Shown: positions 17,050 through 44,240, counted from the first letter of the stretch. The stretch is DNA of 64,000 nt from Candidatus Cloacimonadales bacterium (GCA_041672585.1 JBAYZI010000001.1:1014-65013), one strand, 5' to 3'. The notes: a model not told the origin generated them from the letters alone. A program made the numbers and translations.

Positions 17050-17946
17050 TTATTCAGGGATTATTCTCACTTCCGGGTGCAGCGTTACATGGAACCTACA
17101 AAGTACAGTCTCTTTGATGAATTGAATTAAAGAGATGACATCGTTGGCAGTAGCTCCGCCTTTATTGATGATGAAGCCTGAATGTTTCTCTGAAATTTGA
17201 GCTCCTCCAATAGAATAGCCTTTTAATCCGCAATCATCAATTAGTTTCCCGACAAAATGTCCATCCGGTCTTTTGAAGGTTGAACCGGCGCTGGGGTATT
17301 CGAGTGGTTGCTTAGCTTCTCTACTTTGGGTAAATTCTAACATTTTGGCAGCAACATCTTTCTTGTTACTATGAGTTAGGGTAAATCCGGCTTGTAAGAT
17401 GAGGTAATTTCTCTGTTGATAAATACTTGTGCGATAGGAGAAGTTATGACCTGTCAATGCATGATTGCTTAATTCATGCTCATGGTTTAGATAATCAACT
17501 GAAGTGATGACATCTTTCATCTCGCCACCGTAAGCACCGGCATTCATGAAAACAGCACCGCCGACACTTCCGGGAATTCCGCAGGCAAATTCAAGTCCGG
17601 ATAAAGAGTTTTCTAAGCACAAATTAGTTAATTCTTTCAGAGTAACCCCGCATTGGGCTATAATATTATTATCATGTATCACCATGGAGTTGAGTTTCTT
17701 AGTGGAGAGAATAACACCTCTAAAACCGGCATCGGCAAAGATTAGATTATTGCCACCACCTAAGACAAAATAGCGAAAACCACTTTGCCGTAAGACAAGG
17801 AGCATCCGTTGCAATAGTTCAGGGGTATCCGGAGTTAGAAAAACATCGGCATTACCACCTATTTTGAAAGAAGTATGCTCACAGAGAGGCTCATTTTGAG
17901 AAATATGTTCGGGAGCGAAAAGTTTAAAAAGATTATTATACATCAT
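17050..17946 (-). CDS. murB: UDP-N-acetylenolpyruvoylglucosamine reductase
   Basis: Motifs FKIGGNADVF, LGGGNNLIF, GIPGSVGGAVFMNAGAYG, PSAGSTFKRP and GGAQISEKHSGFIIN. Confidence 0.9.
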   Translation of the reverse strand: MMYNNLFKLFAPEHISQNEPLCEHTSFKIGGNADVFLTPDTPELLQRMLLVLRQSGFRYFVLGGGNNLIFADAGFRGVILSTKKLNSMVIHDNNIIAQCGVTLKELTNLCLENSLSGLEFACGIPGSVGGAVFMNAGAYGGEMKDVITSVDYLNHEHELSNHALTGHNFSYRTSIYQQRNYLILQAGFTLTHSNKKDVAAKMLEFTQSREAKQPLEYPSAGSTFKRPDGHFVGKLIDDCGLKGYSIGGAQISEKHSGFIINKGGATANDVISLIQFIKETVLCRFHVTLHPEVRIIPE

Positions 17947-20804: not shown

Positions 20805-23800
20805 TTATTCCCTGTCTAAATTATATCTTTTTATCTTTTTGATCAAGCCTTGTCTGCTTAGTCCAAGTGCTTTAGCTGCTTGAGTCTGATTCCAGTCAGA
20901 CTCATCTAATGCTTGATTAATCATCTGAATCTCTAGCTCCTCAACTGCATCTTTAAGGAATTGCGGTTTAGAAAGTAGGTTAATTGTTGTCTTATTGGCT
21001 GCGAAGTTAATCAGTTCAGGAGAGACATCATCAGCTTTAATAAAAGCACTACTATCTGCTAAGGTAACAGCTCTTTCGATTTCATTCTCCAGCTGTCTGA
21101 CATTACCCGGCCATTCATAATTCTTCAAAATCGTCATTGCCTCATCAGTTATACCGCTGACATTCTTATTAATATGTTTATTATATTTATCCAAGAAGTG
21201 AACTGCCAAGAGCGGAATATCATCGCGACGTTCTGTTAAAGAGGGTAATTGAATTCTGATTACATTAAGTCTATAATAGAGGTCTAATCTAAACTCACCG
21301 GTTTTGACTTTATCAATTAGGGAGACATTAGTCGCACAAACTACCCTTACGCTCACAGTTTCAGTCTTGGTTGCACCTACTCTTTTCACTTCGCCTTCTT
21401 GCAAGAATCTTAATAACTTTGCTTGAGTAGAAAGGGAAATATCAGCAATTTCATCTAGGAAGAAAGTACCGCCGTCGGCAAGTTCAAGCAATCCCTTCTT
21501 ATCATAAGCAGCACCTGTGAAAGCACCTTTGACATGTCCGAATAACTCAGACTCGAGCAATGTTTCCGGCAAAGCTCCACAATATTGAGCAATAAACTGT
21601 TTGTTCCTTCTAATACTGCTATAGTGAATAGCGCGTGCAATTAATTCTTTACCTGTACCGCTTGGTCCTTCCACTAAAATAGTAGTCGGAGTATCTTTAA
21701 TTCTATTGACCAGATCAAAGATTTCTAACATCTTTTTACTTTTACCAATGATATTAAAAGGATTAGATTCTGTTATTTCGCCTCTAATCGCAGCGTGAGT
21801 CTTTTCTAAATCAGAAGTCCTAATATTCTCAATCAAAACAATAATCTGATTACACAAAGCAGAAATCATATTAATCGACTTCTCTGGGAAGTAGTGAGTT
21901 CCATGTTTAGTCATGAGAATTATCACACCTTGAGACTTATTTCTCACAGAGAGAGGGAAGGCAACAATATGATTATAGATTGGAGCAAAACTTGGTTGCT
22001 TATGATCAATCTTCTTAGCTGCCGTGAATGATTGTCTGCCAATATCCATAATTACGTCATAATATTTATCGCTCTTTTCGATATTGATAAACTTCAAATA
22101 CTGCCAACTATCTTTAATAGTTTGATTGCTGTATAAACAGACAATTGCACTATCTGCTTCGGCAAAATCAACTAATTTAGTGGAAGATTCTTCTAGCAGA
22201 GTATCAAAATTAGTAATTGTACCGAGGTCTCTGGTTATTTCATAGAATTTATTTGTAAGATGGTCTTGATTTTTATTACTCACTAATTCAGCTTTATGTT
22301 CTTTAGTAATTTTGTTTATCAGGATATCAGTTTTTTCGAGAAGTTTTATAGCTCCAAACTTCTTAATAGATTTTCTGTTATTATTAAGAATCTCCAAAGC
22401 TTGCTCCCATTCCTGTTGTTCTGATAAGAAAGTTGCAAGCAGATAATTTGCTTGAGCCAGTTCATACTGTTTGGAGTTTGATAAGAATAGCTCTATTGAT
22501 TTTAGAACATACTTCTTAGCTACTTCATAATTATCTTTTTCTAGAATTGCTTTGAGGTAATATGATTTGCCCAGTTCATTGGTGAGGTTGAGTTCCTCAG
22601 CAATAGCTAAAGCTTGATTCAAATAGTAGGAAGCACTTTCATAATTATGAGTCATAACAAAATACATTGCCTGTTTCTGATATCCTTCCACAATCTTATG
22701 TTTAGCATCCACAGATTTAAAGAAGTCCAGACTTTCCACTATATAAGAGTAAGCCTCTTTGAATTTATGCAGTTGAGTCAACACAGAACCAATATTGCCA
22801 TAGAGATCAGCTTTGATATTCTCATCTGTTATTTTAGGAAGAAGCTCCATACCTTTGAAGTATAAATCATAAGCAATATTGAACTCTCCGCGCTTTTCAT
22901 AAATCTCGCCAAGGTTGCTGTAAGAGATAATCAAGCCATCGAAATCTTCATACTCTAAACACTTATCAATTGCTTTTTGATAATACTCAATCGCTTTATC
23001 CCAATCGCCTTTAGAGTTGAACAGAGTTCCCAGATTATTATAGGTAGGAATAAGAACGCGGTAAAAATTGAAGTTTATAGCTATTTCTAAAGATTTCCTA
23101 AAGGCATCCTCAGAATTCTTATAATTCTTTTCATCCATATAGGTTACGCCCAGGTTATTGTAGATATTGGTAATCTGATATGGCTCATTTAATAGAGTTT
23201 GTATTTTCAAAGCTTCTTTGAGATAATAGATAGATTTGTTTCTATTACCTTTATCATCCATTAAACCACCTAAATTGTTATAGCAAACAGAGATTCCATT
23301 GAGGTTATATCTTTCTTGCTCGATAGCAAGGCTCTTCTGGTACATCTCTTCAGAGTTATCATATTCACCTTTAAATTGATGTAAAACGCCAATATTATTA
23401 TAAACTGCTGCTAAACCAATGAAGTTTTCAGCTTTCTTATAATATGACTCAGCTTCTCGAAACTGATCAAACGCCTTATCATAATCATTATTGAAATAAT
23501 GTAATTTACCGGTGAGTTTTTTGGTATCTGCCAGAATATTCGCTTGCATATTCTTATCTTCAATTAGGAAAGCATTCTGAATAGTCATTTCCAACATTAA
23601 ATTAGATTCGACAAATTCTTCATTGTCTATTAAAATCTCAGCTTTTAATAACATGATTTTCGTTGTCCAAAGAGTATCTATGTTTTCAGGAGAGTACTGT
23701 TTAATAATCTCTAAGGCAAAGTTAGAAGAGTTGGAGTTAAAAAGAGCTTTGGCTAAATAATAGATAATATCCGCTTCCGGTGAACTTTGTTTGCTACAAG

Positions 23801-25067
23801 TATGCAGATATTCTCTAAAGTAATCAGCAGATTTCTCAAAGTTATTTAAATCTAAGTGAGCCAAACCCAGTTGTTTTATTATTTCTAACTTCTTATCTAT
23901 TTTTTTAAGCTTCACAAACATAAAATTCAGGATAACTATCATACTTTGATAATCATATAGTAACTTTAAGTTTTCTAACGCCTGTTTAAAGAGCGGAGCA
24001 TCATAGTTATTTTGTAAGATATAGTAGTTTACGATATTATATGAATCAATATTAAAGTGTTGCAAAAGTTCCACACATCGTTCAATTTGAGGTTGGAAAT
24101 TCTTGATTGACAAATTATTAAAATAATATTGATAAGAAGAAATTTTGTGAATAAAGTAGTTACCCTTGTGATGAACGATTAAATAAGACTTTTCTAAGAT
24201 TTCCAGGTTTTCATCCAATTTTTTAGGAAAGAGAGTCTGTAAGATCTTGTACTCCGCATGTTTATCTAAGATATAAATACAGGAAAGTATCTCTTTTTGG
24301 AAATCAGTTAAAGACTCAATTCTTGCGCCGTGAATCGCGAAACTATCTAAGTTTTTATCTATGAATTCTGTAAGGTCTAACTTTCCTCTACTTTTGGATA
24401 AAGATGAAACAATATGGTTTACTATATAGAGATTACCTTTAGAGATGTTTTTAATTATTTCCGCTTCATGCAAAAAATCACTTTTCATATTAGGGAAACT
24501 TACTTCCAGTATTTTAACAATATCTTCTTGGGTAAGAAAATTCAACACGAATTGTTCAGAAAATGTGAAATTACTTACAGGAGTAAAAGCTACGATCTTC
24601 AAAGGAATTTCTGCCCAATAATTAATTATATACTGAATATAATCGCGTGTATAGGAGTCTAACAGATGGCAATCATCTATCAGCATGATGCCGGGACGTG
24701 CAAAATCGCGAAGTTTTAGCTGCTCACTGAAGAAGAAGAAGAAGTCATATTTTTGCCCGGTTTTGTATTCTTTGCTTAAATCATGAATAGTCTGGAAATC
24801 TTTGTCGCTAATCCCGGTAATTAACTGAATAAATTCCTTAAAGTGGTTCTGTCCAAAAACACTTGGAGTTAAGACATGATAGAAGCTACCTTTTTTCTCT
24901 AACCTCTGGATTAAGTTTTTAAACAACAGAGACTTACCGGTTCCCGCATTTCCTGTAACTTCTATTAAAGAACTACCCTTCTCCTCTAACTTATTTAAAA
25001 GCTCTGACAGCTTAGATATTTTCTCGACAATATATTTTTCCATAGCTTGGTTAGTACCAATTTCCAT
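20805..25067 (-). CDS. 1,420-aa sigma-54-dependent transcriptional activator with N-terminal STAND/AAA_16-type ATPase, long TPR array and GAF domain
   Basis: Walker A GNAGTGKS and Walker B IMLIDDCH near the N-terminus. About 500 aa of TPR-like repeats (YNNLG/YNNIG periodicity). A GAF-like segment. EBP AAA+ core GPSGTGKE...GAFTGA (nt 21511-21528)...FLDEI...R-finger region. C-terminal Fis-type HTH QTQAAKALGLSRQGLIKKIKRY. Confidence 0.85.
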   Translation of the reverse strand: MEIGTNQAMEKYIVEKISKLSELLNKLEEKGSSLIEVTGNAGTGKSLLFKNLIQRLEKKGSFYHVLTPSVFGQNHFKEFIQLITGISDKDFQTIHDLSKEYKTGQKYDFFFFFSEQLKLRDFARPGIMLIDDCHLLDSYTRDYIQYIINYWAEIPLKIVAFTPVSNFTFSEQFVLNFLTQEDIVKILEVSFPNMKSDFLHEAEIIKNISKGNLYIVNHIVSSLSKSRGKLDLTEFIDKNLDSFAIHGARIESLTDFQKEILSCIYILDKHAEYKILQTLFPKKLDENLEILEKSYLIVHHKGNYFIHKISSYQYYFNNLSIKNFQPQIERCVELLQHFNIDSYNIVNYYILQNNYDAPLFKQALENLKLLYDYQSMIVILNFMFVKLKKIDKKLEIIKQLGLAHLDLNNFEKSADYFREYLHTCSKQSSPEADIIYYLAKALFNSNSSNFALEIIKQYSPENIDTLWTTKIMLLKAEILIDNEEFVESNLMLEMTIQNAFLIEDKNMQANILADTKKLTGKLHYFNNDYDKAFDQFREAESYYKKAENFIGLAAVYNNIGVLHQFKGEYDNSEEMYQKSLAIEQERYNLNGISVCYNNLGGLMDDKGNRNKSIYYLKEALKIQTLLNEPYQITNIYNNLGVTYMDEKNYKNSEDAFRKSLEIAINFNFYRVLIPTYNNLGTLFNSKGDWDKAIEYYQKAIDKCLEYEDFDGLIISYSNLGEIYEKRGEFNIAYDLYFKGMELLPKITDENIKADLYGNIGSVLTQLHKFKEAYSYIVESLDFFKSVDAKHKIVEGYQKQAMYFVMTHNYESASYYLNQALAIAEELNLTNELGKSYYLKAILEKDNYEVAKKYVLKSIELFLSNSKQYELAQANYLLATFLSEQQEWEQALEILNNNRKSIKKFGAIKLLEKTDILINKITKEHKAELVSNKNQDHLTNKFYEITRDLGTITNFDTLLEESSTKLVDFAEADSAIVCLYSNQTIKDSWQYLKFINIEKSDKYYDVIMDIGRQSFTAAKKIDHKQPSFAPIYNHIVAFPLSVRNKSQGVIILMTKHGTHYFPEKSINMISALCNQIIVLIENIRTSDLEKTHAAIRGEITESNPFNIIGKSKKMLEIFDLVNRIKDTPTTILVEGPSGTGKELIARAIHYSSIRRNKQFIAQYCGALPETLLESELFGHVKGAFTGAAYDKKGLLELADGGTFFLDEIADISLSTQAKLLRFLQEGEVKRVGATKTETVSVRVVCATNVSLIDKVKTGEFRLDLYYRLNVIRIQLPSLTERRDDIPLLAVHFLDKYNKHINKNVSGITDEAMTILKNYEWPGNVRQLENEIERAVTLADSSAFIKADDVSPELINFAANKTTINLLSKPQFLKDAVEELEIQMINQALDESDWNQTQAAKALGLSRQGLIKKIKRYNLDRE

Positions 25068-25566
25068 GACAACCTCATATTTTGATTAATAAATGATTTT
25101 TCTAGTGTAAACTTTGTATAACCATCTGTAAATAGTTATTACAATTTAGTCAAGAGAAAATTTGTTTTATTAAGAGAAATATCGTAAATACTCACTATTA
25201 TAATTATCTAAACCATTCTAAGTCAGGTGAATAGATTGAAAATTATAACATCTCGATCTTCCTGATTTTATAATTCCTCCCAAAATAAAACTGTTCTTTT
25301 CCCTAAGACTCCCCTGGCACCCTCTTGACTACTCGGATTAAATGTCGCTAAAGTATCGGTAAACCTATGCAGGTCAAGCTAATGACAGAATGGCGATAGG
25401 TGTAGAAAATGAAATTAGTGGTTATTTTCTCCAAATTTAATCACTGTTTTGAACAAAGAAACACAATTTACCTGTTTACACCTGCAAACTTGGTAATCAT
25501 TGAAATTAGGTAAAATCAACAAAATAAATCTTCTTTGTCCTTTATGAATAAATTTGGGCTAAAGTT

Positions 25567-25600
25567 AATGCCATGTAGTTAGTTAGGGAATAATGGCATT
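25567..25600. promoter_or_regulatory. inverted repeat AATGCCAT-N18-ATGGCATT, candidate upstream activator site
   Basis: Perfect 8-bp arms at 25567-25574 and 25593-25600. They lie 47-80 bp upstream of the candidate -24 element. Confidence 0.3.
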
Positions 25601-25645: not shown

Positions 25646-25661
25646 TGGCATAAAACATGCT
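25646..25661 (+). promoter_or_regulatory. candidate sigma-54 (-24/-12) promoter for the giant-protein operon
   Basis: TGGCAT-aaaac-ATGCT. GG at 25647-25648 and GC at 25659-25660 have the canonical 12-nt register of TGGCAC-N5-TTGCW, on the strand of the giant gene and beside a divergent EBP gene. Confidence 0.4.
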
Positions 25662-25851: not shown

Positions 25852-26016
25852 ATGATTAGCAAGTTAGACAAGAACTTTTTGACAGTAATGAACCGTGGTG
25901 GACCATCTTTTTGGTGTGGAGAAATTGACAGAAATGCGCAAAATTTTATGAGTTTTGAAACGAGGTTGCCTGAATATTCAGGTATATCCTTACAAATATT
26001 AGAAAAAAAATTGTAA
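25852..26016 (+). CDS. unannotated 54-aa ORF directly upstream of the giant gene (hypothetical)
   Basis: AGGAGA plus 8 nt plus ATG. Encodes MISKLDKNFLTVMNRGGPSFWCGEIDRNAQNFMSFETRLPEYSGISLQILEKKL. The stop lies 17 nt before the giant ORF start. Below the track size cut-off. Confidence 0.3.
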   Translation: MISKLDKNFLTVMNRGGPSFWCGEIDRNAQNFMSFETRLPEYSGISLQILEKKL

Positions 26017-26033: not shown

Positions 26034-29000
26034 ATGTTTAACAAACATCCGATTTTAATCTTATTGTTCGTCATGCTAACAAGCCTGGCTTTTGCTGCTA
26101 CAACAGTAACTGCTACTCATGTTATTTATGATTCGAATAATGTAGTACAAGAAGTTGCTGTTGTAGGCTCAAGAGTTCACTTTATAGTGAATATGAACTC
26201 AGATGCTACAATAGACGCTGTAAAAATTAAGAGCGATAACATTATCGGGGCATCAGCTTCTATTGAGCTAGCTTTCTCAAGTAAAGCAGCTTATACATAT
26301 GAAGGTGATTATATTGTAGTTCCCGGAGATGTTAACAAGCCTATAGCAGGTGAAGTTTATCAAGTTTTTGTGTATGTTGATGGTGGAACAGACCCCATTA
26401 ATACACAAGCAAACTATTTTTTACCAATCGATAATCAAATTCCATTTATTACTAATGGATTATCAACTCTAATTGAATCGCCTGCCGGGAAAACTACTTT
26501 CGGTATTGGTGATCAAGTAAAGTTTATTTTCCGTAGAAATTGGAATGATTCAACAAAAGATGTCGTTGCAGCAACCCTTGATCTTACCTCAATAGGTGGT
26601 CCTGCTGAAGTGGTTACTACTAGAAATATTGAAATTTTCACAGCTACTTATGTACTAACTGAAAATGGAATTCTTGGTGGATATACCCCTTCAATTGTTG
26701 TACCTATCAAAATGACTGACATAAATGGTAATGTTAGTGTAGTCCACGCTTCCAATGTGATAAGCGGAGATGCAGCTAATAATCCATATCCTGCTGACAC
26801 CAGCAGACCTACTTTCGGTAACATATCTGATTTACAAGACAATGGTCAATTCAGATTTTCACCAGGCAATGATATGTTTGGTATTTGGGATACTGAGCCA
26901 AACACAATTTCAGCTAAAATTGAAATTCCTGGTTTTGGTCAAGTTGGTCAAACAAACAAATTTGTATTATTAGTGCAAAATGAAAATACAGATTCTAATG
27001 TTGGAAATATTGTCTTCACTGCCGGTGCTTCTAATGTTACTATCGCAGGTGATGTGGTTACATTCGTGTGGGATGGTAAAGTTGATGGTAGTGTTTTAAG
27101 TGAAGGCATTTATGGTTTAACCCTAGTTAAGCTTATTGATGTTGCCGGAAATGAGACAACATTAGAATCATTACCTCCGGTAATGAATCCTCAAATTAGC
27201 CAGGGACAAACAGAATTGAATGCTCTGGATTTTGTTGTGGATAATATTGCTCCACTATTTGAAAATCTTAATGGTACACCGTCAGAATTAAGAGTATTTG
27301 ATTCAGCCAGTGATAACCAAAGATACATTATTAATAGACTAATTGATGAATCAACTAATGCCGAAGGCGAAGAAAATAATTTTGGACCTGAGGACACAGT
27401 TACTTCTACAGATGCAGTCTATTTTGCTTTTTCTGTAAAAAGAGATTTTGCCAATGACTTAGAACCGGAAAGAAAAGAGTTCGTAAAGTATTGGGTTGAA
27501 GTAGCTTCTGTTGCTAACCCAACTATGAAAAGATATTTCTACCCTGCTTCTACTCAACTTGGTGGATTAGTTGAAAGTAAAATGGCTATTCCTTTTGTTA
27601 ACACTGAAGCTTATGCTACAGTGAATACAAAAGCTGAATTCTCATGGTCTCCTTCTACACTTGAATATGCAGCCGGTGATTATACTGTAACTGCTTATAT
27701 CCAAGATAATGCAGGTAATATCAGAACTTCAGTAAAAACAGTTGCGTTGGTAAATGATTATGATGGCTATGTTCCACCAATCATCCCACCGGATCCAACT
27801 GATGAATCTTTAATTACATCTTATAAAATTGCAAGCACCCATGAGGGTGGAGCTAATGCATTAGATGCAATGGAAGGCTTAATTCCTATTTTCTATGTGA
27901 ATTCATACTTCCCTGGTGGAGATATGTACTTCAGTACAGGTAGTAATCATATAGATATCGAAATAGAAGTAAGTAATGTAGATAATGCAGAAAAAGTTAT
28001 TTTCACAAGAAATAACCCTAATTTACCTGCTCAATTCAATGCTCAACTTACAACTTTCGATGCTAATAATAGAGTAACTCTGTCAGTTCCAATGTCTGCT
28101 TTTGCAGAAACTGCTACCGGATATTTCACTTATGGTAGTGCAACTTCAGATATTAAAATTGAAGTTCTTACCAGAAATCTCGAAAACGGTGAATTTAATG
28201 TATATAATGTACTTGCAGGAAACAAACAATTCAAAATCGTTAGACCGGTACAGCCTGTTTGGCCTGTGATCGTAAATGATATTGTTGATGTTGTTCCACA
28301 TTGTATTAGCCCCGGTAATCCATCATGGGCTTATGATGCTGTAACCAATCCAGCTAATGAAGCAGGAATGCCTCACAATGGTACAGACCATCCATTTAAT
28401 GACATCTCCTTTGAGATAGATGCTTCCAATGTGAATTATGCTTGGACTCTAAGAGTTTATGATCCGGATAATCCAGCTTTAGTAAAAAGTTCAACCGGTG
28501 TTAGATTAGCAGATTCAGGTGTCTTTAATGGGAGCCTCCAATTTGCCAACTTAACAAACTCAAACAATAATATAGTTGGCGTACTAGGAAGTAAGTTACT
28601 TAATGTAGAGCTAAAAGTTACTCCTGAAGGTTATACCGACACAGGTTATGTTGCTCCACAAACAGCTTACTCTTATGCCGACACTCGCGTAGATAATGAA
28701 AATCCTGTGATTTTAGGAACAGATGGTAATAAATACCTTCCTAATCCCGCCGGAAATACTTTATTCTTAGCTAATGGAATCAATAGCTTCAATTTTGATA
28801 TTGAAACTAACGAACATTTAGTTGAGAATGGTTGGTCAGCTCTTGTGTACAACGAAGATACTCTTCAGTTAGTACCGGGTGCGGGTGTTACTATTACAGC
28901 CGTTGGTTCAGGTGATACATTTACTTGTCCAAATTCAGGTAATGTCGGTTATAAAAACTTTAATATCACTGCCGAAATCCCTGCTTTTGCAGACGGCGTA

Positions 29001-32000
29001 TTAGAGAATGTTAACTATACCTTAATTCTCAGAACACCTAATGACTTTGGTGGAAACCCTGGAAGACATAACAATCCTCCATATCCTTATGATGCTGATG
29101 CTTGGCATACTGACTCTTCAGAAGCTTTCGTACACTTTGTTGTGCTAATGGAAGCTCCGGAAGTAGTAACCACTTCAGCGGCTTTCTACTTTGTTAATAG
29201 TGATAATGACTCGGTTTTAGATAAAGCTGCTCAAGCAGGTAACTTCCAATTTAATGTTAGCATTAAAGGTTATCCTGGAATTACTCCTATTGCAACTACA
29301 AGAGGCGTTGAGAGTTATCTCTGTGAAGTAGATTTCTCGAAATTTACTGGTGTAACAACCACAGCTCCTCAAGTTGTTGATCTTGCCAATGGAAATTGGG
29401 AAATCAAATATACCGGTTCATATACCGGCGTAGCTGCAGGAATCAATACCGGTGATGTTATACCCATCCCTGTTAATTTATCTCTTGGATTTACTCCTGG
29501 AGATGTAGCAGTTCATACTAATCATGATTTCACTTATAACGGTGTAATTTATGATAATGTAGCTCCTATATTTACTAATAATACAGTGCCAAACATTGTA
29601 AATGAAAATAGCGTGTTAACATTAAAATACAAGATCACTGATAATATCGCAGGAGTACAAGACGACAAAGTTACTATCAAATGTTCAGATAGTGCCTTGA
29701 TTCCTAATAATACAGTTGCTACTGCTTTAGCAGATAATGTTTATCAGTGGCTAATTACAATCCCTGCTAACTACACAACAAACACATTAACATTTAATTT
29801 TGTGGCAAAGGATATGTTAGACAATACGAAAACTCATTCTCATATTGTTGACGTAATTCCAATCCCAACTGTTAGTAATGTTGTTGTTCAAAATACCAAT
29901 CCGGCTCATCCTAACATTATTAAAAATGGGGATAAAGTTAAAGTTTCATTTAATTTAACAGACGCTGAAAGAATCGATGCTGTTAATATTACATTGAAAA
30001 ATATGCCGGTATTCCCTATCACTAATTATGTAGATGGCTATAATGAGTTAATTATTAATCCATTTAATACAGCTGGTTATGCTCAATATGAGTTCGTTAC
30101 TGCTAGTGTTGCAATTGTACACCCTTATGAGCGCTTAGCTGATAATTCATCTGCTAACAATAATGCTGCTGCAGTAAAGACATTTGTTGATAATAACCAA
30201 GTTGTTATTAGCGATCTTAAGTTCTTCGAAAATGGTGTAGAAAAAACAGATAATGTATTCTCTGCTGAAGCACATGATGATTTCTATGTAGAAGCTACTT
30301 TCGTAGCTTATGATGGACACATCAGTGCTAACAAGCTTCTTCTCAACTATGCCGGCGTTGTGGCAGGTACTCCTACCTTAATGAGTTCACCTGTTCAAAG
30401 CACACCTGTAACAGGTTTTCCTAAGAATACCTTTACTTATAGATGGGAAAAAAGTAAGTTTGATTATGCTAAATTTGTGGATTCAGTAGCTCCATTCATG
30501 GGCTATGTTGATCTCAACTTCAATTTAGAAATTACATCAGATTATGCTTTCTTTACTGAATATAATGAAGATGCAAGAGCAATTTTAGATGTTCCTACTA
30601 TTACTAATGTAGAGATATTTAATGTTACTGCTCCTGATCAGTTAGCTGATCACGGTAATCATATAGATATTCTTGAAAATAATAATAAAGTTAAAGTTAC
30701 ATTTGACTTAACTTATGCAAATAGAATTTCGGAAGCTGTTATTACTTTAAATAACGGAACTACCAAAACTATAAATGCAGGTTTAGTTAATGGTGTTAAC
30801 ACTGCCATAATCGATGATTTTGGTATTGGAAATCCAGAATATGTTACTTTAAAGGTAGATGAACTTAAAATTATCCACACTAATGAGCACTCAGTATTTG
30901 AATCAATCGATGCAAGTACTAACACCCTCGTTCCATTTGTAGATAACTACCAAGTTAATATTGTGGACTTTAGAGCATTTGTTAATGGTAGCCCAACTGA
31001 CAACTATTTCTCCATTGATTCTAACCAAACTGTTAGATTTGAGGCAGATATTATTGCTCATGCAGGTCAATTAACAACCTCTAATGTTGTGCTCAAATAT
31101 AAAGGAATCACAGCTACTTCAGCTCAATTAGATAATACAGTATTACATTCAGAACCTAAAACAGGTTTTGTTAAGAATACTTATACTTATTCATGGGATA
31201 ATGCAGATTTCGATTATGCTAATTTCTCAAATCAAATTAATGGCTTTGAAGTTGTTCCTTTTGTTATTGAAGCTAGATCAGACTTTGATTTTGTAGCTAC
31301 TCCTTATAATCAAGATGTAGTTGCTCTCAATGTTCCTGAATACACCTTCAATGGTATCTCACCTGAACGTTATAGCGGTTTTGACCCTGACGGTTGGTTT
31401 GCTCCTGAACACGATGTAAGATTAACAATGACTGTTGTAACTCCAATGAGTAACATTAACCCAAGAGCAGAGTTTGATAATATTACCAATAACTTCCCTG
31501 ATGTTAACTGGGTAGCCGGTGATGTTACAACTACTTTTGTAACTGTTGGTGGTGTTAATTATTACACTCATGTAGTTGAATGGATTGAAATACCTGATGT
31601 CCAAGCATGTTGGAATACTTATGCTGATGGAGAAACAGTTCAGGTTGAAATTCAATATAATGACTTCTACATCTCTACTCCAATATCAATATTCAGAGAT
31701 ATCAAAGTTGATTTAGAAGTTCCTACTTATGAAAGATACTCAATTGTACAAGCTGCCGGCACTATCACTGATTTTGCTACAGCCAATGCAATTCCCGGTA
31801 TAAATACCTTAGCTAACCATGTTGGTCCTCATAACTTTGACCTTAGCTTAAACAATCCTGCGGACCTTAATTCTTATGAATTTGATGGTTCTCTTTTTGT
31901 TAAGAGAATTGTTGAAGATATGAATGGTGTTTCAGTTGTTGAAGCAGGTGTAGCGTTGCCAACTATTTCCGGAAACTGGATGACACCTGAGTTGTTAGGA

Positions 32001-35000
32001 AGTGAAGTCGTAAGCCCTCACGAAATAGCCCTTATCTGGAAATTCACTCCGGTTGATCCTACCTTAGTAACTAATACTGATATAGTTGAGATTCAGTTTA
32101 ACCAGTTGGAAGACTTAGTAGGCCATCTAAACTATGCAGGTGTTTATAATTCACCTTCTGCTAGATATGCTGAAGCAGGTCCAATAACTACTATTAACTT
32201 TATCGCCAGCCAAGCTGATGTTGAAGGTATTACTGCTTTCCAATATGATGGAATTGACAGAATGAATTCTGAAACATCACCTTATATTAGTACTGGTGCA
32301 AGAATTGGTTTAATCTTAGAAGTTGAACCTCATCAAAATGATAATGCTACTGTAACTAGTGTAGAGATTCTTGCTGATAATTATAACTTAGCAACAAATG
32401 ACTGGGTTACTTTAGTTGATAACGGTAATAATCAATATTTCTTAGGCTCAGATGTTTTTGTTAATGAAACATCTTTAGGCTGGTTACCATTAGAATACAG
32501 AATTACTTATTCAACTAATGAAGTAAGTCAAAATAGTGTTTCTAATGTTTATAACCTTATTGATGTTACTTCTACTAACTTAGTAGCTATCTCAGTATGG
32601 AGTGAAACATTAGGCGAAAGTGGCATGTATTATGTTACACCTGGTGATGATGCTACTATTAAAGTAGTATTCAGCAGTAATGCTCCATTAATCGGAACAG
32701 TACTTAAACCATTCGTTACATTAACTGATTTCAGCAATATCCTAGATATGGCTGATCCTTATGTTGTTCCTCAAAGTAATATTACTTGGGATGGAACAAA
32801 TTGGGTTGCTGAAGTTACCGGTATTCTTGTAAAAGATAGCCACAGTCTAACTTCACAAGAAGTAAGTGTAACTGCTACAAACATTACAGGACAAATGACC
32901 AGTGCCTCAGGTAAGGTTATCTCTTATGCAGGTTCAGGTCCTATCGTTCCTATAATTAAACATGTTGAATTAATTACAGATAATGCAGTTAACTTGTTAG
33001 CTGTTAGTGGCACTCAAGTCGTTAATCCTGTAGTTAATGTATATATAAATACTGTATATCAAGAATTCATTAACAATGTAACTATTGACCCGATTGCCGG
33101 ATTAGCATTTAGTCCTTATACTGTTGCTTCAACAACAGATCACGACTCTAAATGGTTAGTAACTATCCCGGTTACTATTACAGATCCTACTCTTTTTACC
33201 GAAGGCGATATCGTTACACTAAATATCACATCTATCAGAGATCCGTTTGAAATTACTGCAACAGTATTCGAACACCATGAATCTCTTGATGTAGAAGTTG
33301 ATGGAGATGAATTTGATATAGTTATTAATAACCCTGGAACTCAAAATCCTATTCTTGGTGATTTTGAACTCTTAGTTGATTTTAGTAACTTCGGTGAAAC
33401 TTATGATCCAGCTTATGTTCCTGTTTTAGCTGACTTTGTTATTAGCAGTCCTCAACTTGTTAACGATCTCAATCCAACTAACATGGTTGGTGACGTAGTA
33501 AGCTTAACAATTGATGCTTCTGATTTCACAGCAGATGCAGAAACTCTTGGAAGCTTTGACATCACTGTAACTTATACTAATATCTATGGTTTCATAAAAT
33601 CAGAAACTGAAACAATCTTACTTGATGCAACTGCTCCGGTAGTTATTGCTAATGGTATCACATTTGATTCTGTTTCCGGTCCAACAAGTTATGCTTGGGG
33701 CAGTGTTATAAGTTATGACAAAAACTGGACTTCATTAACAGTAGAATTAGAAGATCCTGTTATGTTTGGTACTAATGGCGTAGGTATTGCTACTGCTAAT
33801 ATTTCAATGGCATTAGGCATTGTTACTCCAAGTACTCCTGCATTCACTAACTTAACTACATCCTTAAATGGTAATGTCCTTGAATTCAGATTCAATGGAA
33901 ATTATTCGGGATTTGATTTAGCTGAAGGCGATTACATCATCACAGTTAATGCTGTTGATGCTTTAGGTAATGCTTATAGCGATACTCAAGAATTCAGATA
34001 TGCACATTCACCTTCCGGTGTTACAGCACTTACCGATCCTTCTATTATCTTAAATAGTGGTATTGATGTTGGACTTGAATTCTTAGTAAATGATCCTGAC
34101 GGTGTAGTAAACACAGTTGAATTCCAAGTTTACTTAGACTCTAATAATGATGGAGACTATATAGATGACCTAGCAAATCTTGTTCTTCAAACAAGTGATA
34201 GTGTTTATCCTTATGGTTTTGAATGGGATTTAAGTAATTCTATTTATACATCATACCAATACAATCCAGATTATGACCTAAATAGTAATGGTGATAATTT
34301 AGATGCTGACGAAAATGTTAGAAACTACATTGTTAGAGTTTTAACAACAAGTAGCCAGATGAGAGCCGTAAGTGACACTTATTTCACTTATTCAGTCGCT
34401 GATGTTACAGCTCCTGAAGTAACTGATGTGTTAGCTGCAGGTTTTAACCCTTACCAAGTTGTTTATGATTATATCACACCAGCTAATAATAATATAGATT
34501 TCACAGCCCTTGTTGGTACTTGGACTGATGTTGACTATGTTGAATTAACTGTTAATGGTGATTTATTAACTATTGACCCGGCAACTTCTTTTGTTAACTG
34601 GGTTTATGATGCAACTGATATTGGTGAAGTTGTTATTACTGCACAAGCATTTGACTTTGTGGGTAATGTTTCAGCTGCTGCTGACTTCTCAACAGTTCTA
34701 ACAATACTTAATCCTTCTTATGATAAATTCTATAACTTAACATTAATAGATTATGATAATTATGATACAGATAATTCTATTGCTAATGGAACTGTCTATT
34801 CACCAAATAATCCATTAATCACAAATAATGTAAGATTATATGCAGAATATCCAAACGGCTTAGCCGGTATTTCAGAAATTCAATTCTATGTTAATAAAAT
34901 TGAAACTGCCACCGGTATTGTTTCTACATTACCTGTTGATAATGACGCTAGCGTTAATCCTCAGTATGGTAATGATAATATAGTATCACCAATTAACTGC

Positions 35001-38000
35001 TGGGATGAAACCGCAGGTAAATGGAATAGCTGGATTACTGTAGATCCTGCAATTTATACAAATAACGGTAATTACGATGGTACTGACTATACTTATGAAT
35101 TCTACGCAGTTCTAATTGATAGTTATACAAGTATCGAAGTTATCCAATCAGGCGTTACTAATGTTGATACTGGTTTCAGAGTAGATTACTTAAAACCAAC
35201 ACTTACAATAAACGCTGCTTCTGTAACTCACACTTCATATACTTACTATGATGCTGCTACAGATAGATTAGTATTTGATTTAGTTGATAATGATGCACTT
35301 GCCATTGATATTAATGTTATGATTGTTGATTATAACGGAATTAATGTTGCTGATAATACAAACATCATTGTTGACCCTATAACAAATACCGTATCTATTC
35401 CTTGGATCGGCCTTAATGAGATTGAAGGTGAAGGTGTAATTACTTATAATGTTACTGCTACTGATGTTAATGGTAACGTTTCTGTAGTAACTCCTATTGA
35501 TGTATTCGTTGATAACCAAGCTCCGCAAACTACTATTGCAAATTTAGCATACGTAACAGATGCTGATAATGGTGGTGCAGCAATGAATAGCTTCCATGTT
35601 TATGATGGAAACCCAATTGCTGTGATAGCTGAAAATGCTGAGAACTTAACTATCCAAATCGATAGAGCTCAGATTCTTGGTTTATCATCAGAAAATACCG
35701 CTACTTGGGCAAACAGAACTCAACCTTGGTATAACAATGCTAATGATGACATCTATCCTCCGGTAAATCTCTATAGAAATATAGATGGTGCTGGTTGGAA
35801 CTTAATCGCTTATGATCACGAAGTTGATGCAAACAATATGTATGAATTCAGTATCACTGTTGATACCGGTAATATTGTTGAATTTGCAGTAATTGCAGAA
35901 GATACTCGTGGTAATATCGAAGGTGATGTTGTGGTTAGGGATGCTTTTGGTAATGTTCTTAGACCTCTTAATGGTACTTTAGAAGATGAAGAATTAACAG
36001 ATGCAATCAACTTAACAGTTAATGTTCTCTATCCTATTGATATCACAACAACTATTGTTAATCACAATGCTGATGATGTTATCAATGGCTTAGCTTTACT
36101 AACTGCTAATGTTGCTACTCCTACTGATATTATTTCAGTAGAATTCCAATATCTTGCTGACGGAGTATGGACTGCTCTTGGAACTGATGATTCTATGTTA
36201 GATGTAGATTATAAATTCAGTATCGATAGAGATCAAATTCCTTACACTGTTATCCCTGGTGTTCATGTGGAAATTATTGATAGCAATAATATTGCTACAA
36301 TGGAAGAAATATGGGAAAATGGCGATAACTGGTCAGATACATTTACCTTATTAAGAGATAGTTACACTGTAAATTATTATGTTGATGCTAATAATGATGG
36401 TGTAATTGATGGTAATGAAATAGCTAATTATTTAATTAAAACTGAAACTATCATGGCTGATGGATATGCTTATCAATTCGATACAACTACAATCGTAGAT
36501 GGTTCTTATCTCTTTAGAGTAGTACCATTTGATGGTTTAGATGCTACCGATGATATAGCTGCTGCCGTTCCAATGAACTTAATCATTGATAACACAGCTC
36601 CTGAATATGATGTTACAGCTCTTAACTTCGTAACTATTGATGGTTATAATGTGCTTGATGAAAATGTAGAATTTACTTTAGCTTATGCTAATGCAAATGA
36701 TGTTCACATGGTACGTGCATGGTTAGTTAATATAGCTAATCCTGCAGATAACTATCGTTTAGTTTATGAAACATATGCAGCTTATGATGTAAGAACTACT
36801 GACTTCTCAGTTAATCTTACAACTCTTGCTACTCCTGTTCCTGATGGTAACTACTATCTTAAAGTAAATGTTCAGGATTTCAACAATAATGCTAATATCC
36901 AATCTCCTGTTCTTTATAATGACCTTCATGTTGATACAAATGCTCCTGTAATTACTCAGGTTGATAATGCTCTTAACATGTCAGGTATTTATACAGCAAC
37001 TCACCAATTCGAAGTAACTTATAGTGATTACTTAGCTCAATTATTAGATGTTAATAATGATGCTCTTGGTGTGAAAGAGATAGAAGCAACCTTTACTCAC
37101 AACGCTATTGTTGATGTTGTTGATGTAAAAGTTAGTGATGATGGAACTCTAGTAGTATTTGACTGGACTCCTTCACAAGCTATGATGGATGAAGTTATTA
37201 ATGGACATGACGATATTTTAGTTAATGTTGATGTTAAAGTAACAGATCATAATGATTATGTTTCTGACATCTTCAATGCAGGTACTTTTGTACTTAGAAG
37301 TGCAGAAGTTGGAGCTAAGATAATGGTTGTTTCAGACTTCAGAAATGGTGTTGAAACTTATCATCAAACAAGTGTAACTGATAACAATGAAATTCATGAT
37401 GTTATCGGTGGTAATATCCTTAATATATATGCATTCTTACCTGAAGGTAATAATGTAATAATGCCAAACAATGTTAGTTTCGAGTATTGGGATGGAACAA
37501 ACTGGGTTCAATATGCTACTAATGCTACATGGAATCCAATTGCTAGCTTCACCGGTACAGGCACAATCTCCGGTTATTCTAAATATATGGAAGTTAACTG
37601 GAATATTGCTAACCTTGATGGCGACTATACAGTAAGAACCGTTTCTGAATATGGCTTCGGCAATATTGTTAATGAAACTCACTTACATATCTGGAATAGC
37701 ACAATCGTTCCTGAAATTGTTGTAAGCACAACAGACGGTGCTGTAACCACTGAAGTTAACAGAGGTACAGAATATATCGTTTCTTTAGGAAATATTGTTT
37801 CTACACATCCAGAATTCTTAAACCAAGTTAACTACATGTATCGTTTCTTAGATGCAAATAATAATGTAGCTTCTCCTTGGAACCAATTAAGTGGCTTCAC
37901 AGCTGATGATTATAACTGGACAATTGGCATGGATTATCTCTTTGCTGAAAAAGTTCAATTAGCTGTTCAAGTTGAAAATATCTTCAATAATATAGCAGAC

Positions 38001-41000
38001 CAAGTTAGCTTCATTGCTAACGGCGGAACTCCTTATGTTGTGGATATCGTAGATAGTGAAGCTCCAATGATAACTGATCTTACAGTAACTCAAGCAGGTA
38101 ACCCTGTTGTTATAGATAGTTGGGTAGCAATTGCTAATGCTCTCGACATCGCTGTAACAGTCGATAATGCAGTACTTGATTTAAGTAGTGTTGTTATTGC
38201 TCTTGATGGTACTGAAGTTTATTCAGTTGCTTATGATACAAATAACCAAGTTGATCCAGTTGCGGTTAACTATACATTAGATATTTCCGCTTTAACAACC
38301 GGAACTTATCAAATTGAAGTTATCACATCTGACTTTGTTGGCCATACATATACTGAAGTATTTGGCTTTAGCGTAGATACTGATGTACCAACAGGTGCTT
38401 TAGTTCTTGTAGAAAATGTTAACAACGAAATCACTCGTGGAGTGGCTTACACATTCAATGCTAATGCAATGGATAATGTTACCGCTACTGATGATTTAGT
38501 AATTAACTACTTCTGGTCAGAAGCTAATGCTGCTGTTTGGACTCCTCTTACATTAGATGCTAACAACCAGTGGAATATTCCTCAAGGTTGGGTAATCGGT
38601 GCAAGTTATGACTTCAAGGCAGAAATGGAAGATGAATACAATAATGTTGGTGAAACTGTTGTTACTTACTCAGTATTTGATAACATCACTCCACTTATTG
38701 CTAATAGCACAAACAACTTAGTAGATGGTTCTATCTTCAATATGAATGATGAAATCGTTCTTACTTTTGATGTTGATGCTTCTAACATCTTAAACAATAA
38801 TATCGAACTCCAATATGCTGATGTACTTAATAATACTTGGATGTCACTCGGCACAACTCCTGCTGTTCTTAACGGCGTTGTTTCTGAAGTAACATTTGGT
38901 AACTTAGGTCTTCCAAGTGGTTTCTATGACTTCAAGGCACTTATTAGTGATCTTGCAGTTCCTGCAAATCAGTTTGATATTGACTTAGCTTCAATGGTTT
39001 ACTTTGATGCTGACGCTCCTGAAGTATTCTTTACTAACATTGATAACACTACCGAGTATGTTCTTGGTAACAATGTAAGTATTAATGCTGATGTTAACTA
39101 CACTGACGGAATAAATAATATTGCTCCTTTAGATGTGGCTTCAGTTGAATTCTTAGTAGATGGTGTTTCCCATACAGTAGTAGAAACTGCTCCTTACACA
39201 TTTGTTTGGAACACAGCTCTTCTTGCTAATGTAGGTACTTACACAATCGAAGCTATCGTAACTGACAATGATAACTTCACAAATAATGTACTACAAAATG
39301 TTGTAGTTGTTACTCCTGATGAAAACGACCCATACGCTGTTATTACCGGTTTCGAATTCAACAACGAAACAATCAGTTCTGACAAAATGTATGCCAAGGT
39401 TACTAATTGGGGTAATAATATCACTTCTGTTGTAGCACAATATACTGAAAATAATGTGGATTGGATTGAATTTGCAATCAATACAACAAACAACGATCCT
39501 CTCTATGATTTCGACTTCAACGCTGAAGCAATTCAAAATGCTATTGCTGTTAAGGTTCTTGTTAAGATGAACAACAACCAAGAATCATCACTTGTTTATC
39601 CTCTTGATGTAACTTTCAACAATGGTATGTTTGACTTAACAGATGCTAATGGAGATATCGAAATTCATGAAAATAACTTAGTAATAGTTGATACAGACAG
39701 CAGACCTAATGTCATTAGAATTGATGAAAATGGTTATGCAGGTTACGAAACTATTAATAATAACAATGAATTCAACTTAGTTGTGAATGCTAATGACGAA
39801 TTACCAGGTTACTGGTTATCAGGTGTTGCTAATAATGCAGCCTGGATTAAATTCGTAAAACTAGACACACAAATTGGTACAGCAACTAATAATGGCGTAA
39901 CAGTTACCTACAACAATCCTTTCTGGTTTGTTATGTTAGATAACGATATGCTCTTAGCTGACCATTATGCACAACTTACAGACCAAGTATTAGTAAGATC
40001 TATTACCAACGGAAACGCACTTTATACATTACCTATTACAGGTACTGTCGCAGCTGAAGGTGATATTGTAGCTCTTGCTTGGGATGCAGTTCTTGCAGAC
40101 TTTGTTGAACTTGATGTAACTTATAATCAAACTAACGCAACTATGACCTTCACAGCTCCTGTTAATACAGTAGTTACTGTTGGTCAATATGTTGGTTTCG
40201 AAATGTTCGTAACTGACTTTGCTCCTGTTAATGATGATGTATATATGAATGCTGGTACATTATGGACTCTTCCAAATGTAACAATGGACTTCACTGTATA
40301 TCATGAAGAAACAGCTCAAGGTTATCAATTACCTGCAGGTTTCGGTTTAGGAAATATTTCAATCACCCTTAATGATGGTGTTAACAATGTGAATAACATT
40401 GCACTTACTAATGGTGTTGTTAGTTTCGATTTAATAAATATGAATGCCGGTGTTAATGAATTAATGGTGAATGTAGAAATGAATGGTTTCAATGCAAACC
40501 AAACATTAACATTCAGTGTTGATAATACAATACCAACAATAGCTATCGACCAAACAGTTATTCTTTCTGCTGCACAAAGAACTCTTTCTGCAACAATGCA
40601 AGATGCTCAAACAGGTCTTGTTGATTATAACTTAGTTATTACCAACAATGCTCCTGCTGTTGCTGCAGTTATTAACGTTCCAATGAACGAAATTACTGTT
40701 GCCGGTAATGTTTATAGTTATGAATTATCTATAGAAGAGTTAGTTACTTTAGTTCCACAACCAATGAGATCAGGTAGAAACAACAGAGCTGTTGCTTCTC
40801 TTAATGTTCAGTGGACTGCTGTAAATAACCTCGACCAAATAAATGTAGTTAATGCTAATATTACAGCTAATGTAGTTGTTAATAGACCTATCATTACAAT
40901 TGATAACTCCGGATTTGAAAACGGCTGGTGGGTAAACCCTGCAATGTCTAATCAAATTCTCATGACTGTTGTTCCTGCTACAGGCAGAACAATTGCTCTT

Positions 41001-43124: not shown

Positions 43125-43128
43125 AATT

Positions 43129-43150
43129 GGGAGGGGGTACGCCCCCTTCC
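43129..43150 (+). other. GC-rich stem-loop with a UACG tetraloop immediately 3' of the giant ORF
   Basis: GGGAGGGGG-tacg-CCCCCTTCC is a 9-bp stem including one G.U pair. It starts 5 nt after the stop codon and has no U-tract. It ends 22 nt before the next start codon. Confidence 0.6.
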
Positions 43151-43171
43151 TCTAATAATTTGGAGGAATAA

Positions 43172-44128
43172 ATGACTAAAAGTGTAAAAGTGATGATAAT
43201 TATAGCAGTGATGCTTGGTCTTGTTTCCGCTCTTATTGCTGATAATAACCATAATAACTCTGAACTCCGCATGGGGTATGGTGCAAAAGGTATGGCAATG
43301 GGTGGTACAGGTACTGCATATATGAATGATATCACAGCTGCCTACTGGAATCCTGCAGGCTTAGCTAAGATTGTGGATTATCAAGTAGGAATAGATTATA
43401 TGGACGGTATTGGCTTAGATAGAAATACAAGCTTTGCCGGCATGGGAATGAGATTTAAACATGGTTACATGGCTGTAAGCTGGCTAAACGCCGGTGCAAC
43501 TGACTTTGATGGGTACGATGATTTCGGTACTTCAACAGGTAGCTATGATTACCAAAAGAATAATATAAACTTAAGCTTAGCAACTCGCACAGGAAAGTTC
43601 CTTTGGGGTTCAAGTATTAAGATGATGTTTGATAATATCAATGATGACAAACAGAACGGCTTTGGTATTGACCTTGGCACAATGTATGAAATGAACGAAT
43701 ATATCTCTTTTGGCGCACATGTCAGAGACGTATTTAGTAAATTCAATAAAGTAAGTGTTCCAATGCAATATAATCTCGGTGTTGCAATATTCCCTGTTAG
43801 GGGTTTAACTGTATCCGGAGATTTAAGGCAAGAAGAAAGCAGCAAAGATATCACAGTGCACATGGGTGCTGAATACTGGACAAATATTGGTTCAGATACA
43901 GAAAGTGGTACCGGTTTAGGTACAATGAGAAACTCTTCTAGTAGCTCATGGGAAAATATGTTATCTGAAGTTCAGGCTGGTGTTAGAATTGGTGCTAATG
44001 ATGGACAATTTACTGCCGGATTTGGTATTAGATTTAGAGTTGTAGAAATGAACTATGCTTTTGTTAAAGAAGATTCCTCTGGAATCAACAAAGACAATCA
44101 TAGATATGGTTTAACATTCAGATTCTAA
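43172..44128 (+). CDS. outer-membrane beta-barrel protein, PorV/PorQ/FadL-like
   Basis: Signal peptide. Motif GAKGMAMGGTGTAYMNDITAAYWNPAGLA. Amphipathic beta-strand pattern and a C-terminal ...YGLTFRF. Same family signature as the 1962-2810 protein. Confidence 0.6.
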   Translation: MTKSVKVMIIIAVMLGLVSALIADNNHNNSELRMGYGAKGMAMGGTGTAYMNDITAAYWNPAGLAKIVDYQVGIDYMDGIGLDRNTSFAGMGMRFKHGYMAVSWLNAGATDFDGYDDFGTSTGSYDYQKNNINLSLATRTGKFLWGSSIKMMFDNINDDKQNGFGIDLGTMYEMNEYISFGAHVRDVFSKFNKVSVPMQYNLGVAIFPVRGLTVSGDLRQEESSKDITVHMGAEYWTNIGSDTESGTGLGTMRNSSSSSWENMLSEVQAGVRIGANDGQFTAGFGIRFRVVEMNYAFVKEDSSGINKDNHRYGLTFRF

Positions 44129-44137
44129 GATAGATTG

Positions 44138-44203
44138 TTTTGAGAGGGAATTTTCCCTCTCAAAACTTCTTTTAAGCTCTATGTGGTAGAGCTTAAAAGA
44201 AGT
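44138..44203 (+). other. two adjacent perfect hairpins in the barrel-ompA intergenic gap
   Basis: TTTTGAGAGGG-aatttt-CCCTCTCAAAA forms an 11-bp stem (44138-44165). ACTTCTTTTAAGCTCTA-tgtgg-TAGAGCTTAAAAGAAGT forms a 17-bp stem (44165-44203). Confidence 0.7.
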
Positions 44204-44240
44204 TTTGAATGAATGATAATTAATCAAAAAAGGAGATTTC

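Follow-up and report, generated by a model that had tools for sequence, protein, structure and literature searches.

A STAND module joined to a predicted sigma-54 activator in a conserved single-copy protein of one Cloacimonadota order

The window analyzed here is a stretch of 64,000 nucleotides from Candidatus Cloacimonadales bacterium (GCA_041672585.1 JBAYZI010000001.1:1014-65013). Its minus strand carries a long open reading frame (ORF) in which a preliminary description of the DNA had placed a STAND-type ATPase in front of a sigma-54 activator (Table 1). The locus raises the question of whether these parts belong to one real protein and, if so, how such a protein would work and which genes it would control. 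Bacterial enhancer-binding proteins (bEBPs, or EBPs) are known to be controlled by phosphorylation, by small-ligand domains (GAF, PAS, V4R, and ACT), by PTS domains, and by anti-activators. In the published literature, no bEBP was found described with a STAND nucleotide-switch and oligomerization module as its input, and no relevant paper was found on the combination of STAND with sigma-54 activation, on any member of the family, or on sigma-54 in Cloacimonas. The protein, hereafter STAND-EBP, is almost certainly a genuine and conserved bEBP with a STAND module, and its predicted function as an activator of sigma-54 transcription is highly probable. The window's own genome is labeled G000, and G003, G007, and similar labels denote other Cloacimonadota genomes.

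Translation of the ORF gave 1,420 aa from an ATG start with 0 internal stops. Searched against Pfam as a whole, the protein matched Sigma54_activat (PF00158) with 228 bits at aa 1106-1273, AAA_lid_14 with 92 bits, HTH_8 with 50.5 bits, TPR_12 with 150 bits, TPR_MalT with 49.9 bits (cut-off 45), and AAA_16 with 44.3 bits (cut-off 32.6). No LuxR/GerE helix-turn-helix (HTH) was matched in this search; the C-terminus consists of Sigma54_activat and HTH_8, in agreement with the preliminary description, which had placed a sigma-54 activator where a LuxR HTH might be expected. The motifs it had named (GNAGTGKS, IMLIDD, and GAFTGA) were all found by translation (Table 1). The AAA+ core has its Walker A, the Walker B FFLDE at aa 1202, and an intact GAFTGA and is followed by a C-terminal HTH, and the host has both sigma-54 and -24/-12-like sites. 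The C-terminal half, with GAF, AAA+ with GAFTGA, and Fis-type HTH, is a complete NifA/Nlh-type sigma-54 activator. A STAND module like those of PH0952 and MalT occupies the first 935 residues; it has a nucleotide-binding oligomerization domain (NOD) made up of a nucleotide-binding domain (NBD), a helical domain (HD), and a winged-helix domain (WHD), followed by an arm and a TPR sensor. The NOD has a Walker A and a Walker B of the form hhhhD[DE], the repeat sensor follows it, and the effector is at the end of the protein. In the TPR array, NN[LI]G is repeated at a 40-residue register from aa 557 to 757. The architecture unites two known kinds of regulator, and the layout first proposed (STAND-type P-loop NOD, TPR, GAF, GAFTGA-bearing AAA+, and Fis HTH) was recovered in all its elements by Pfam, structural models, and Foldseek.

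The sequence calls for the NOD and for the GAF domain were weak, and both were settled by predicted structures. Scored alone, aa 1-390 reached 30.1 bits with AAA_16, just below the cut-off of 32.6, and 28.6 bits with AAA_22, above the cut-off of 27; the AAA_16 score of the whole protein lies above the cut-off because a second stretch in the sigma-54 AAA+ core adds to it. The nSTAND and NB-ARC sequence models gave only sub-threshold scores on this protein. With 48 family sequences as input, AlphaFold2 gave a model of aa 1-540 (pLDDT 89.3, pTM 0.86) in which a five-stranded P-loop NBD, a three-helix HD, and a WHD whose beta-hairpin is at aa 297-306 lead into an unbroken series of helical repeats. 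Using Foldseek, the best PDB match to this model was 6mfv_A, the STAND-TPR protein PH0952 (E 3.7e-11, 574 columns), followed by plant NLR NB-ARC modules and ORC/Cdc6. A STAND NOD, by the definition in PMC6468293, should fall in just this neighborhood of PH0952, NB-ARC, and ORC/Cdc6. The STAND identity of the N-terminus, on which the preliminary description depended, is therefore upheld by the fold, with a Pfam score that is only marginal. For the GAF region, GAF_3 scored 23.2 bits (cut-off 27, sub-threshold), and in the homologue P0130 GAF_2 scored 31.1 bits, above the cut-off. The AlphaFold model of aa 925-1105 (pLDDT 88.4) has a GAF fold; its best 50 PDB matches in Foldseek were nearly all GAF domains, among them that of the A. 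aeolicus EBP Nlh1 (4g3k, TMt 0.79), and the domain described earlier as GAF-like can be called GAF. A sequence search of the NOD family profile against PDB chains returned P-loop and TPR fragments only, with neither MalT nor PH0952. When aa 1-520 were searched with phmmer among 1.84 billion representatives, 27 matches were obtained, all but 3 from the protein's own family, so that the NOD has no close relatives outside the order; two of the three outsiders are AAA_16 modules fused to cyclases (P0144 and P0146).

More than 115 full-length homologues (1,410-1,450 aa, 41-86% identity) were found in the protein database, and every named one is from Cloacimonadota (Cloacimonas, Syntrophosphaera, and Cloacimonadaceae). 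The first 520 aa served as the query in a survey of 151 genomes drawn from across the phylum; they were present in 122 genomes, in essentially one copy each, with open frames of ~1,416-1,483 aa where the contig was complete. The regulator was present in 122 of the 130 genomes of the window's order and in 0 of the 21 genomes representing the class's remaining families. Within Cloacimonadota, it belongs to the single-copy core of one order; the label "unusual regulator" given to it earlier fits when it is compared with textbook EBPs but not within its own order, where it is near-universal. The preliminary description had also allowed that two adjacent genes were joined by a fusion, assembly, or frameshift artifact. 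Nothing was found in favor of this, and the same frame runs uninterrupted through closed genomes and more than 100 independent assemblies, which refutes it for all practical purposes. Residues G39, G42, G44, and K45 of the NOD Walker A were invariant in 48 homologues and also in 117 homologues; in the Walker B, D131 is ~90% conserved and D132 varies between D and N. GAFTGA reads G-[AS]-F-T-G-A across the family, the AAA+ and HTH are near-invariant, and conservation in the NOD is far lower than in the TPR, GAF, AAA+, and HTH parts. The orthologue in G049 (L026, aa ~127-134) has LIVMEGDF instead of the hhhhDD Walker B and GTGKY in its Walker A, with the full-length protein kept.

The candidates for the role of sigma-54 activator were counted in each genome. 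The window's genome has rpoN on contig C41 and ~10 Sigma54_activat genes, and the smallest genomes of the order (G003, a closed genome of 2.2 Mb, G007, G089, and G108) keep only two, with rpoN kept in all four. One of the two EBP-like genes is that of STAND-EBP; the other encodes a receiver-type protein of 471-473 aa with a receiver-AAA+-HTH layout and NtrX as its best NCBIfam match (L080 2115..3530 in G003 and L081-L083 in G007, G089, and G108). At the GAFTGA position, this NtrX-like protein has GINGLL or GIGGKD in G007, G089, and G108, which belong to one genus, and GSFTSA in G003, which belongs to another; in G003, its gene adjoins two uncharacterized ORFs. In the smallest genomes, GAFTGA is carried by no EBP other than STAND-EBP. 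This motif makes the contact with sigma-54, and EBP homologues without it work with sigma-70. VpsR is an example of such a homologue (PMC6158489). Since the second EBP is without GAFTGA and rpoN is kept, STAND-EBP appears from the sequences to be the sole canonical sigma-54 activator in the genus of G007, G089, and G108.

Sigma-54 promoters were searched for with the relaxed pattern TGGHAY-N5-WTGCW and its reversed control, which gave 46 vs 9 matches in G003, 55 vs 7 in G007, and 57 vs 8 in G000. In G000, 12 intergenic sites had the 5-nt spacer vs 1-5 sites with spacers of 3, 4, 6, 7, or 8 nt. The intergenic sites of these three genomes were found 19-176 nt 5' of signal-peptide genes. In G003, the genes preceded by such a site, at 37-85 nt, are three for Peptidase_C25, one for an M14 carboxypeptidase, pgsB (TIGR04012, 403 bits), and one for an unknown secreted protein. 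Those of G007 precede pgsB, a C25-like gene of 1,817 aa, an M14-like gene, and the genes for four other signal-peptide proteins. In G000, sites precede the genes for a C25 peptidase with a sorting tail of the type IX secretion system (T9SS), another T9SS-tail protein, and an M14 peptidase, as well as an LVIVD lipoprotein gene and the giant gene that lies divergent to STAND-EBP in the window. The pgsB site is common to G003, G007, and G000 (TGGAATGTTAATTGCA, TGGAATAGATTTTGCA, and gGGAATGTAACTTGCA), and before the C25 gene located 3' of glnA a TGGAATAAT..TTGCT core is kept in G003 and G007 with diverged flanks. In G003, the same 16-nt -24/-12 element occurs twice, at 973201 and 999937 (L052 and L053); the two copies also share ~15 nt of upstream sequence exactly and a downstream leader of ~30 nt with 2 mismatches. 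One copy precedes pgsB, and a Cas6-like gene begins 324 nt after the other. Because STAND-EBP looks like the sole canonical activator in some genomes and -24/-12-like sites recur, its regulon may consist of pgsB (poly-gamma-glutamate synthase) and of genes whose products are secreted or carry a T9SS tail, Peptidase_C25 and M14 carboxypeptidases above all, an assignment that we consider about as apt to prove right as wrong. Together, the proposed targets would make up the cell-surface apparatus of the organisms and their machinery for protein degradation outside the cell.

A mechanism for such control can be proposed by analogy. At rest, the NOD would hold ADP in a closed form, with the arm and TPR folded back onto it. 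A conserved cytoplasmic ligand would then bind the TPR; a conserved peptide or protein partner is likelier than a variable small molecule because the TPR surface is very highly conserved. The NOD would open, exchange ADP for ATP, and multimerize, and the GAF domain and the long linker helix would relay this multimerization so that the AAA+ domains form an active ring on enhancer DNA. This second ATPase, with its GAFTGA loops, would remodel the sigma-54 holoenzyme and open sigma-54 promoters. The switching model is taken from work on PH0952 and MalT (PMC6468293, PMC4381067) and the control of AAA+ by GAF from NorR (PMC2941729), with Nlh1 (4g3k) as a further parallel for the relay through the linker helix. 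A STAND switch in the NOD is, on this analogy, a possibility on which we are evenly divided. The expression "two-ATPase signal integrator" used in the preliminary description may reasonably be inferred from the architecture. Taken as a whole, a bEBP with a STAND switch and a peptidase/pgsB regulon is the explanation that we favor, with moderate confidence. It is possible, and we put it forward tentatively as the less probable outcome, that STAND-EBP is the ancestral master sigma-54 activator of the order, with two oligomerizing ATPases in series, of which the STAND NOD would gate the assembly of the AAA+ ring when the TPR array reads a conserved peptide or protein signal in the cytoplasm, and a regulon of C25 and M14 peptidases, T9SS cargo, and poly-gamma-glutamate synthesis.

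Several points weigh against the favored explanation. The elimination argument depends on the completeness of the metagenome-assembled genomes (99, 95, and 90%) and on the GAFTGA requirement, and in the closed genome G003 the second EBP with GSFTSA might still act on sigma-54. The N-terminal module is just under the AAA_16 cut-off when scored by itself, and its Walker B shows D/N variation and is lost in one lineage (G049). No shared enhancer motif (upstream activating sequence) was above the null in the dyad and k-mer enumeration against shuffles in 12 G003/G007 promoters, and none was found by listing inverted repeats 5' of the 12 G000 promoters. Conservation of sites across genomes was seen only for pgsB and one C25 gene, with a relaxed pattern, and most C25 paralogues of G000 are without a site. 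In ten other genomes, no relevant sigma-54-like sites were found near the EBP gene; apart from one candidate in the window, no sigma-54 promoter was found beside this gene in the genomes examined, and the assignment of targets is therefore indirect.

The rival explanations differ in the part of the favored reading that they replace. If the NOD were a degenerate scaffold with no nucleotide switch, control would be exerted through partner binding at the TPR and through GAF, as in ordinary GAF-EBPs. The NOD is indeed the least conserved part (27-35% identity across families vs near-invariant TPR, GAF, and AAA+), the Walker B residue D132 is N in several lineages, with the motif lost in the G049 orthologue, and a colinear TPR-GAF-EBP without a NOD in Zixibacteria (P0178) indicates that the chassis can work without it. 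Nevertheless, no homologue departs from the Walker A G-x-x-G-x-G-K, D131 is largely kept, the NBD-HD-WHD fold is predicted with high confidence, and the full-length NOD is retained in ~120 genomes, so that we consider a mere scaffold unlikely. The variation at the second Walker B acid and the loss of the motif in one lineage suggest that hydrolysis may not matter, and weak hydrolysis is compatible with switching since STAND proteins act mainly via ADP/ATP exchange (PMC6468293).

The other two alternatives keep the STAND-EBP protein as described and look for its function next to its gene. A function tied to its operon partners, as a DNA-damage or envelope checkpoint and not in the control of secreted proteins, would fit the gene order, since the EBP gene is followed on the same strand by the gene of a DinG-like exonuclease-helicase in 10 of 10 diverse genomes from several families (gap -23 to +16 nt), with murB next in 6 of the 10. 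Set against this, no -24/-12-like site was found near the EBP-dinG operon in ten loci, dinG and murB are housekeeping genes whose co-transcription need not imply a common function, and the EBP protein gives no hint of DNA-damage sensing, which makes this alternative very improbable. Local control would instead concern the giant gene, the largest of the window (5,696 aa): the regulator would bind an inverted repeat (AATGCCAT-N18-ATGGCATT), fire a candidate -24/-12 element (TGGCATAAAACATGCT), and drive a small ORF and the divergent giant surface-protein gene. Divergent pairs of an EBP gene and its target gene are common. The element is correctly spaced in the GG/GC register on the strand of the giant gene, with the 8-bp inverted repeat 47-80 bp upstream, and it is among only 12 intergenic pattern matches in the window's genome. 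Like other candidate sigma-54 targets, the giant protein carries a signal peptide and, at the C-terminus, a domain of the FlgD_ig type that scores below threshold. However, five congeners that retain both the giant gene and the EBP (~72-84% identical) have no such element in the corresponding intergenic region, the element of the window is 372 nt from the ATG vs 19-176 nt for the other candidates, and a conserved TTGACA-type element lies closer to the giant gene. The inverted repeat was not found 5' of other candidate promoters in the window's genome and recurs nowhere else, and the giant gene adjoins the EBP only within the same genus and family. Sigma-54 control of the giant gene is treated here as a minor rival because neither the element nor the inverted repeat is conserved in the five congeners, and it is judged doubtful.

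In the window, the DinG-like ORF starts 9 nt after the EBP stop, and in some genomes the EBP stop and the DinG-like start overlap; the two genes stay paired throughout the order. Upstream genes differ among the genomes compared, and none is a conserved neighbor of the EBP. The preliminary description had stated that the gene sits divergent to the largest gene, which is true in the window, but the giant gene is a neighbor only within the genus and family, and the comparison of neighbors that it proposed identified the downstream DinG-like gene as the conserved partner. In the giant protein, no Pfam match was found in the first 4,196 residues, and the region near its C-terminus has only Ig-like domains (Big_7) and the sub-threshold domain mentioned above. 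It is followed 3' by the genes for a 318-aa protein without a Pfam match and an OmpA/PD40 protein (region 26034..46430, plus strand). Directly 5' of it is a 54-codon ORF with a good ribosome-binding site; since the frame is open in five congeners with 50-60% amino-acid identity, it is probably a real unannotated small gene. Just 5' of the EBP start, a block (TGTAAACTT.GTA...CA..TGTAAA.A...GTTACAA....GTCAAG) is kept in the window, one congener, and one sister genus, and on account of this sharing it is a probable promoter or operator of the EBP gene itself. In the congener G046, the intergenic region between the EBP and giant genes (L024 7372..7608) has a 20-bp tandem array (GTAGAGACCTTGCATGTTAA, 11.8 copies, 99% matches) that is not present in the window.

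Table 1. Features of the STAND-EBP locus and its surroundings, with positions counted from the first nucleotide of the window
Feature	Position	Strand	Basis or remark
STAND-TPR-GAF-sigma54 activator gene (P0001)	20805..25067	-	Single ORF, domain matches, full-length orthologues in one order
NOD, aa 1-320: NBD (~30-175), helical domain (180-236), winged-helix domain (242-317)	24108..25067	-	AlphaFold2 model, Foldseek, AAA_16/AAA_22
NOD Walker A GNAGTGKS, aa 39-46	24930..24953	-	Translation
NOD Walker B IMLIDD, aa 127-132	24672..24689	-	Translation
Arm and TPR sensor, aa 321-935	22263..24107	-	TPR_12, TPR_MalT; all-helical in model from aa 321
GAF domain, aa 940-1095, long linker helix at end	21783..22250	-	AlphaFold2 model, Foldseek
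Sigma-54 AAA+ core and lid, aa 1106-1359	20991..21752	-	Sigma54_activat, AAA_lid_14, motifs
AAA+ Walker A GPSGTGKE, aa 1134-1141	21645..21668	-	Translation
GAFTGA, aa 1181-1186	21510..21527	-	Translation; intact
Fis-type HTH (HTH_8), aa 1375-1415	20823..20945	-	HTH_8, 50.5 bits
DinG-like helicase with N-terminal DnaQ-type exonuclease, 946 aa	17955..20795	-	NF005981 DinG 554 bits, TIGR01407 435 bits
murB, third gene of the conserved string	17050..17946	-	MurB_C, FAD_binding_4
Conserved block, probable EBP promoter or operator	25106..25154		Kept in one congener and one sister genus
Inverted repeat	25567..25600	+	8-bp arms, 47-80 bp upstream of candidate element
Candidate -24/-12 element	25646..25661	+	Pattern match, GG/GC register; weak, strain-specific; 372 nt 5' of giant gene
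54-codon ORF, probable small gene	25852..26016	+	Frame open in five congeners
Giant ORF, 5,696 aa	26034..43124	+	Largest in window, divergent to EBP

A STAND input would place two multimerizing ATPases in one signaling chain and carry the MalT paradigm over from sigma-70 to sigma-54 promoters. If STAND-EBP were the ancestral master activator proposed above, bEBPs would have a form of control not described before, and protein degradation by these common digester bacteria would have a key regulator. Because Cloacimonadota are abundant in anaerobic digesters, a regulator of secreted peptidases and a capsule-like polymer would be of ecological and applied interest. The family is tractable, with a single copy per genome, a small sigma-54 regulon, and no rival activator in the smallest genomes.

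Among known systems, PH0952 is the best structural match to the N-terminal model; its NBD-HD-WHD NOD, arm, and TPR sensor come in the same order, and it serves as the template for the ADP-closed, autoinhibited resting state. It has neither GAF nor a second ATPase, and no sequence-level similarity to the Cloacimonadota NOD is detectable. P0144 and P0146, in which an AAA_16 module is joined to an adenylate/guanylate or diguanylate cyclase, show a very weak likeness to aa 1-520 (E 1e-6 to 1e-5) and carry effectors other than the sigma-54 AAA+. The kinase-headed giant EBPs of G069 (1,625 aa) and G031 (1,440 aa) share the large cytoplasmic input, GAF, sigma-54 AAA+, and HTH but have a Ser/Thr kinase domain at the start. 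Orthology with them was rejected: the G069 protein aligns only at aa 1016-1414, the GAF/AAA+ end (41% identity), and these proteins are therefore separate paralogous families. In G069 (L126 383..6603), the kinase-GAF-sigma54 gene is followed by a CsgG/LpoB-like lipoprotein gene; the G031 locus (L128 1460..5782) encodes a Pkinase-TPR-GAF-sigma54 protein; and open frames of 2,210 and 2,332 aa containing a sigma-54 domain were found on contigs C12 and C87 of G092. The Zixibacteria TPR-GAF-sigma54 activator P0178 (960 aa) is colinear with aa 555-1417 (31% identity, E 4e-98) and has no NOD whatever.

The GAF-type bEBPs NifA, NorR, FhlA, and A. aeolicus Nlh1/Nlh2 share the order GAF, AAA+ with GAFTGA, and Fis HTH, and the alignment with the NCBIfam NifA model starts at aa 940 and runs to the C-terminal end; STAND-EBP differs from them in its 935 extra N-terminal residues. 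Identity as NifA (TIGR01817, 351.6 vs a cut-off of 528.85) or NorR (NF003451, 329.3 vs 476) was rejected, and since the scores are below every equivalog cut-off, STAND-EBP cannot be given any of these names. E. coli MalT and the large ATP-binding LuxR (LAL) regulators have a STAND NOD, a repeat sensor, and a C-terminal DNA-binding effector in common with STAND-EBP, they are activated by inducer- and ATP-dependent multimerization, and the TPR_MalT model is matched here above its cut-off. They differ in using a LuxR-type HTH with the sigma-70 holoenzyme, whereas STAND-EBP has a sigma-54 AAA+ motor, a Fis-type HTH, and an additional GAF domain, and MalT is not among its top structural or sequence matches. 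By this comparison, STAND-EBP would work like MalT while standing outside the MalT/LAL group.

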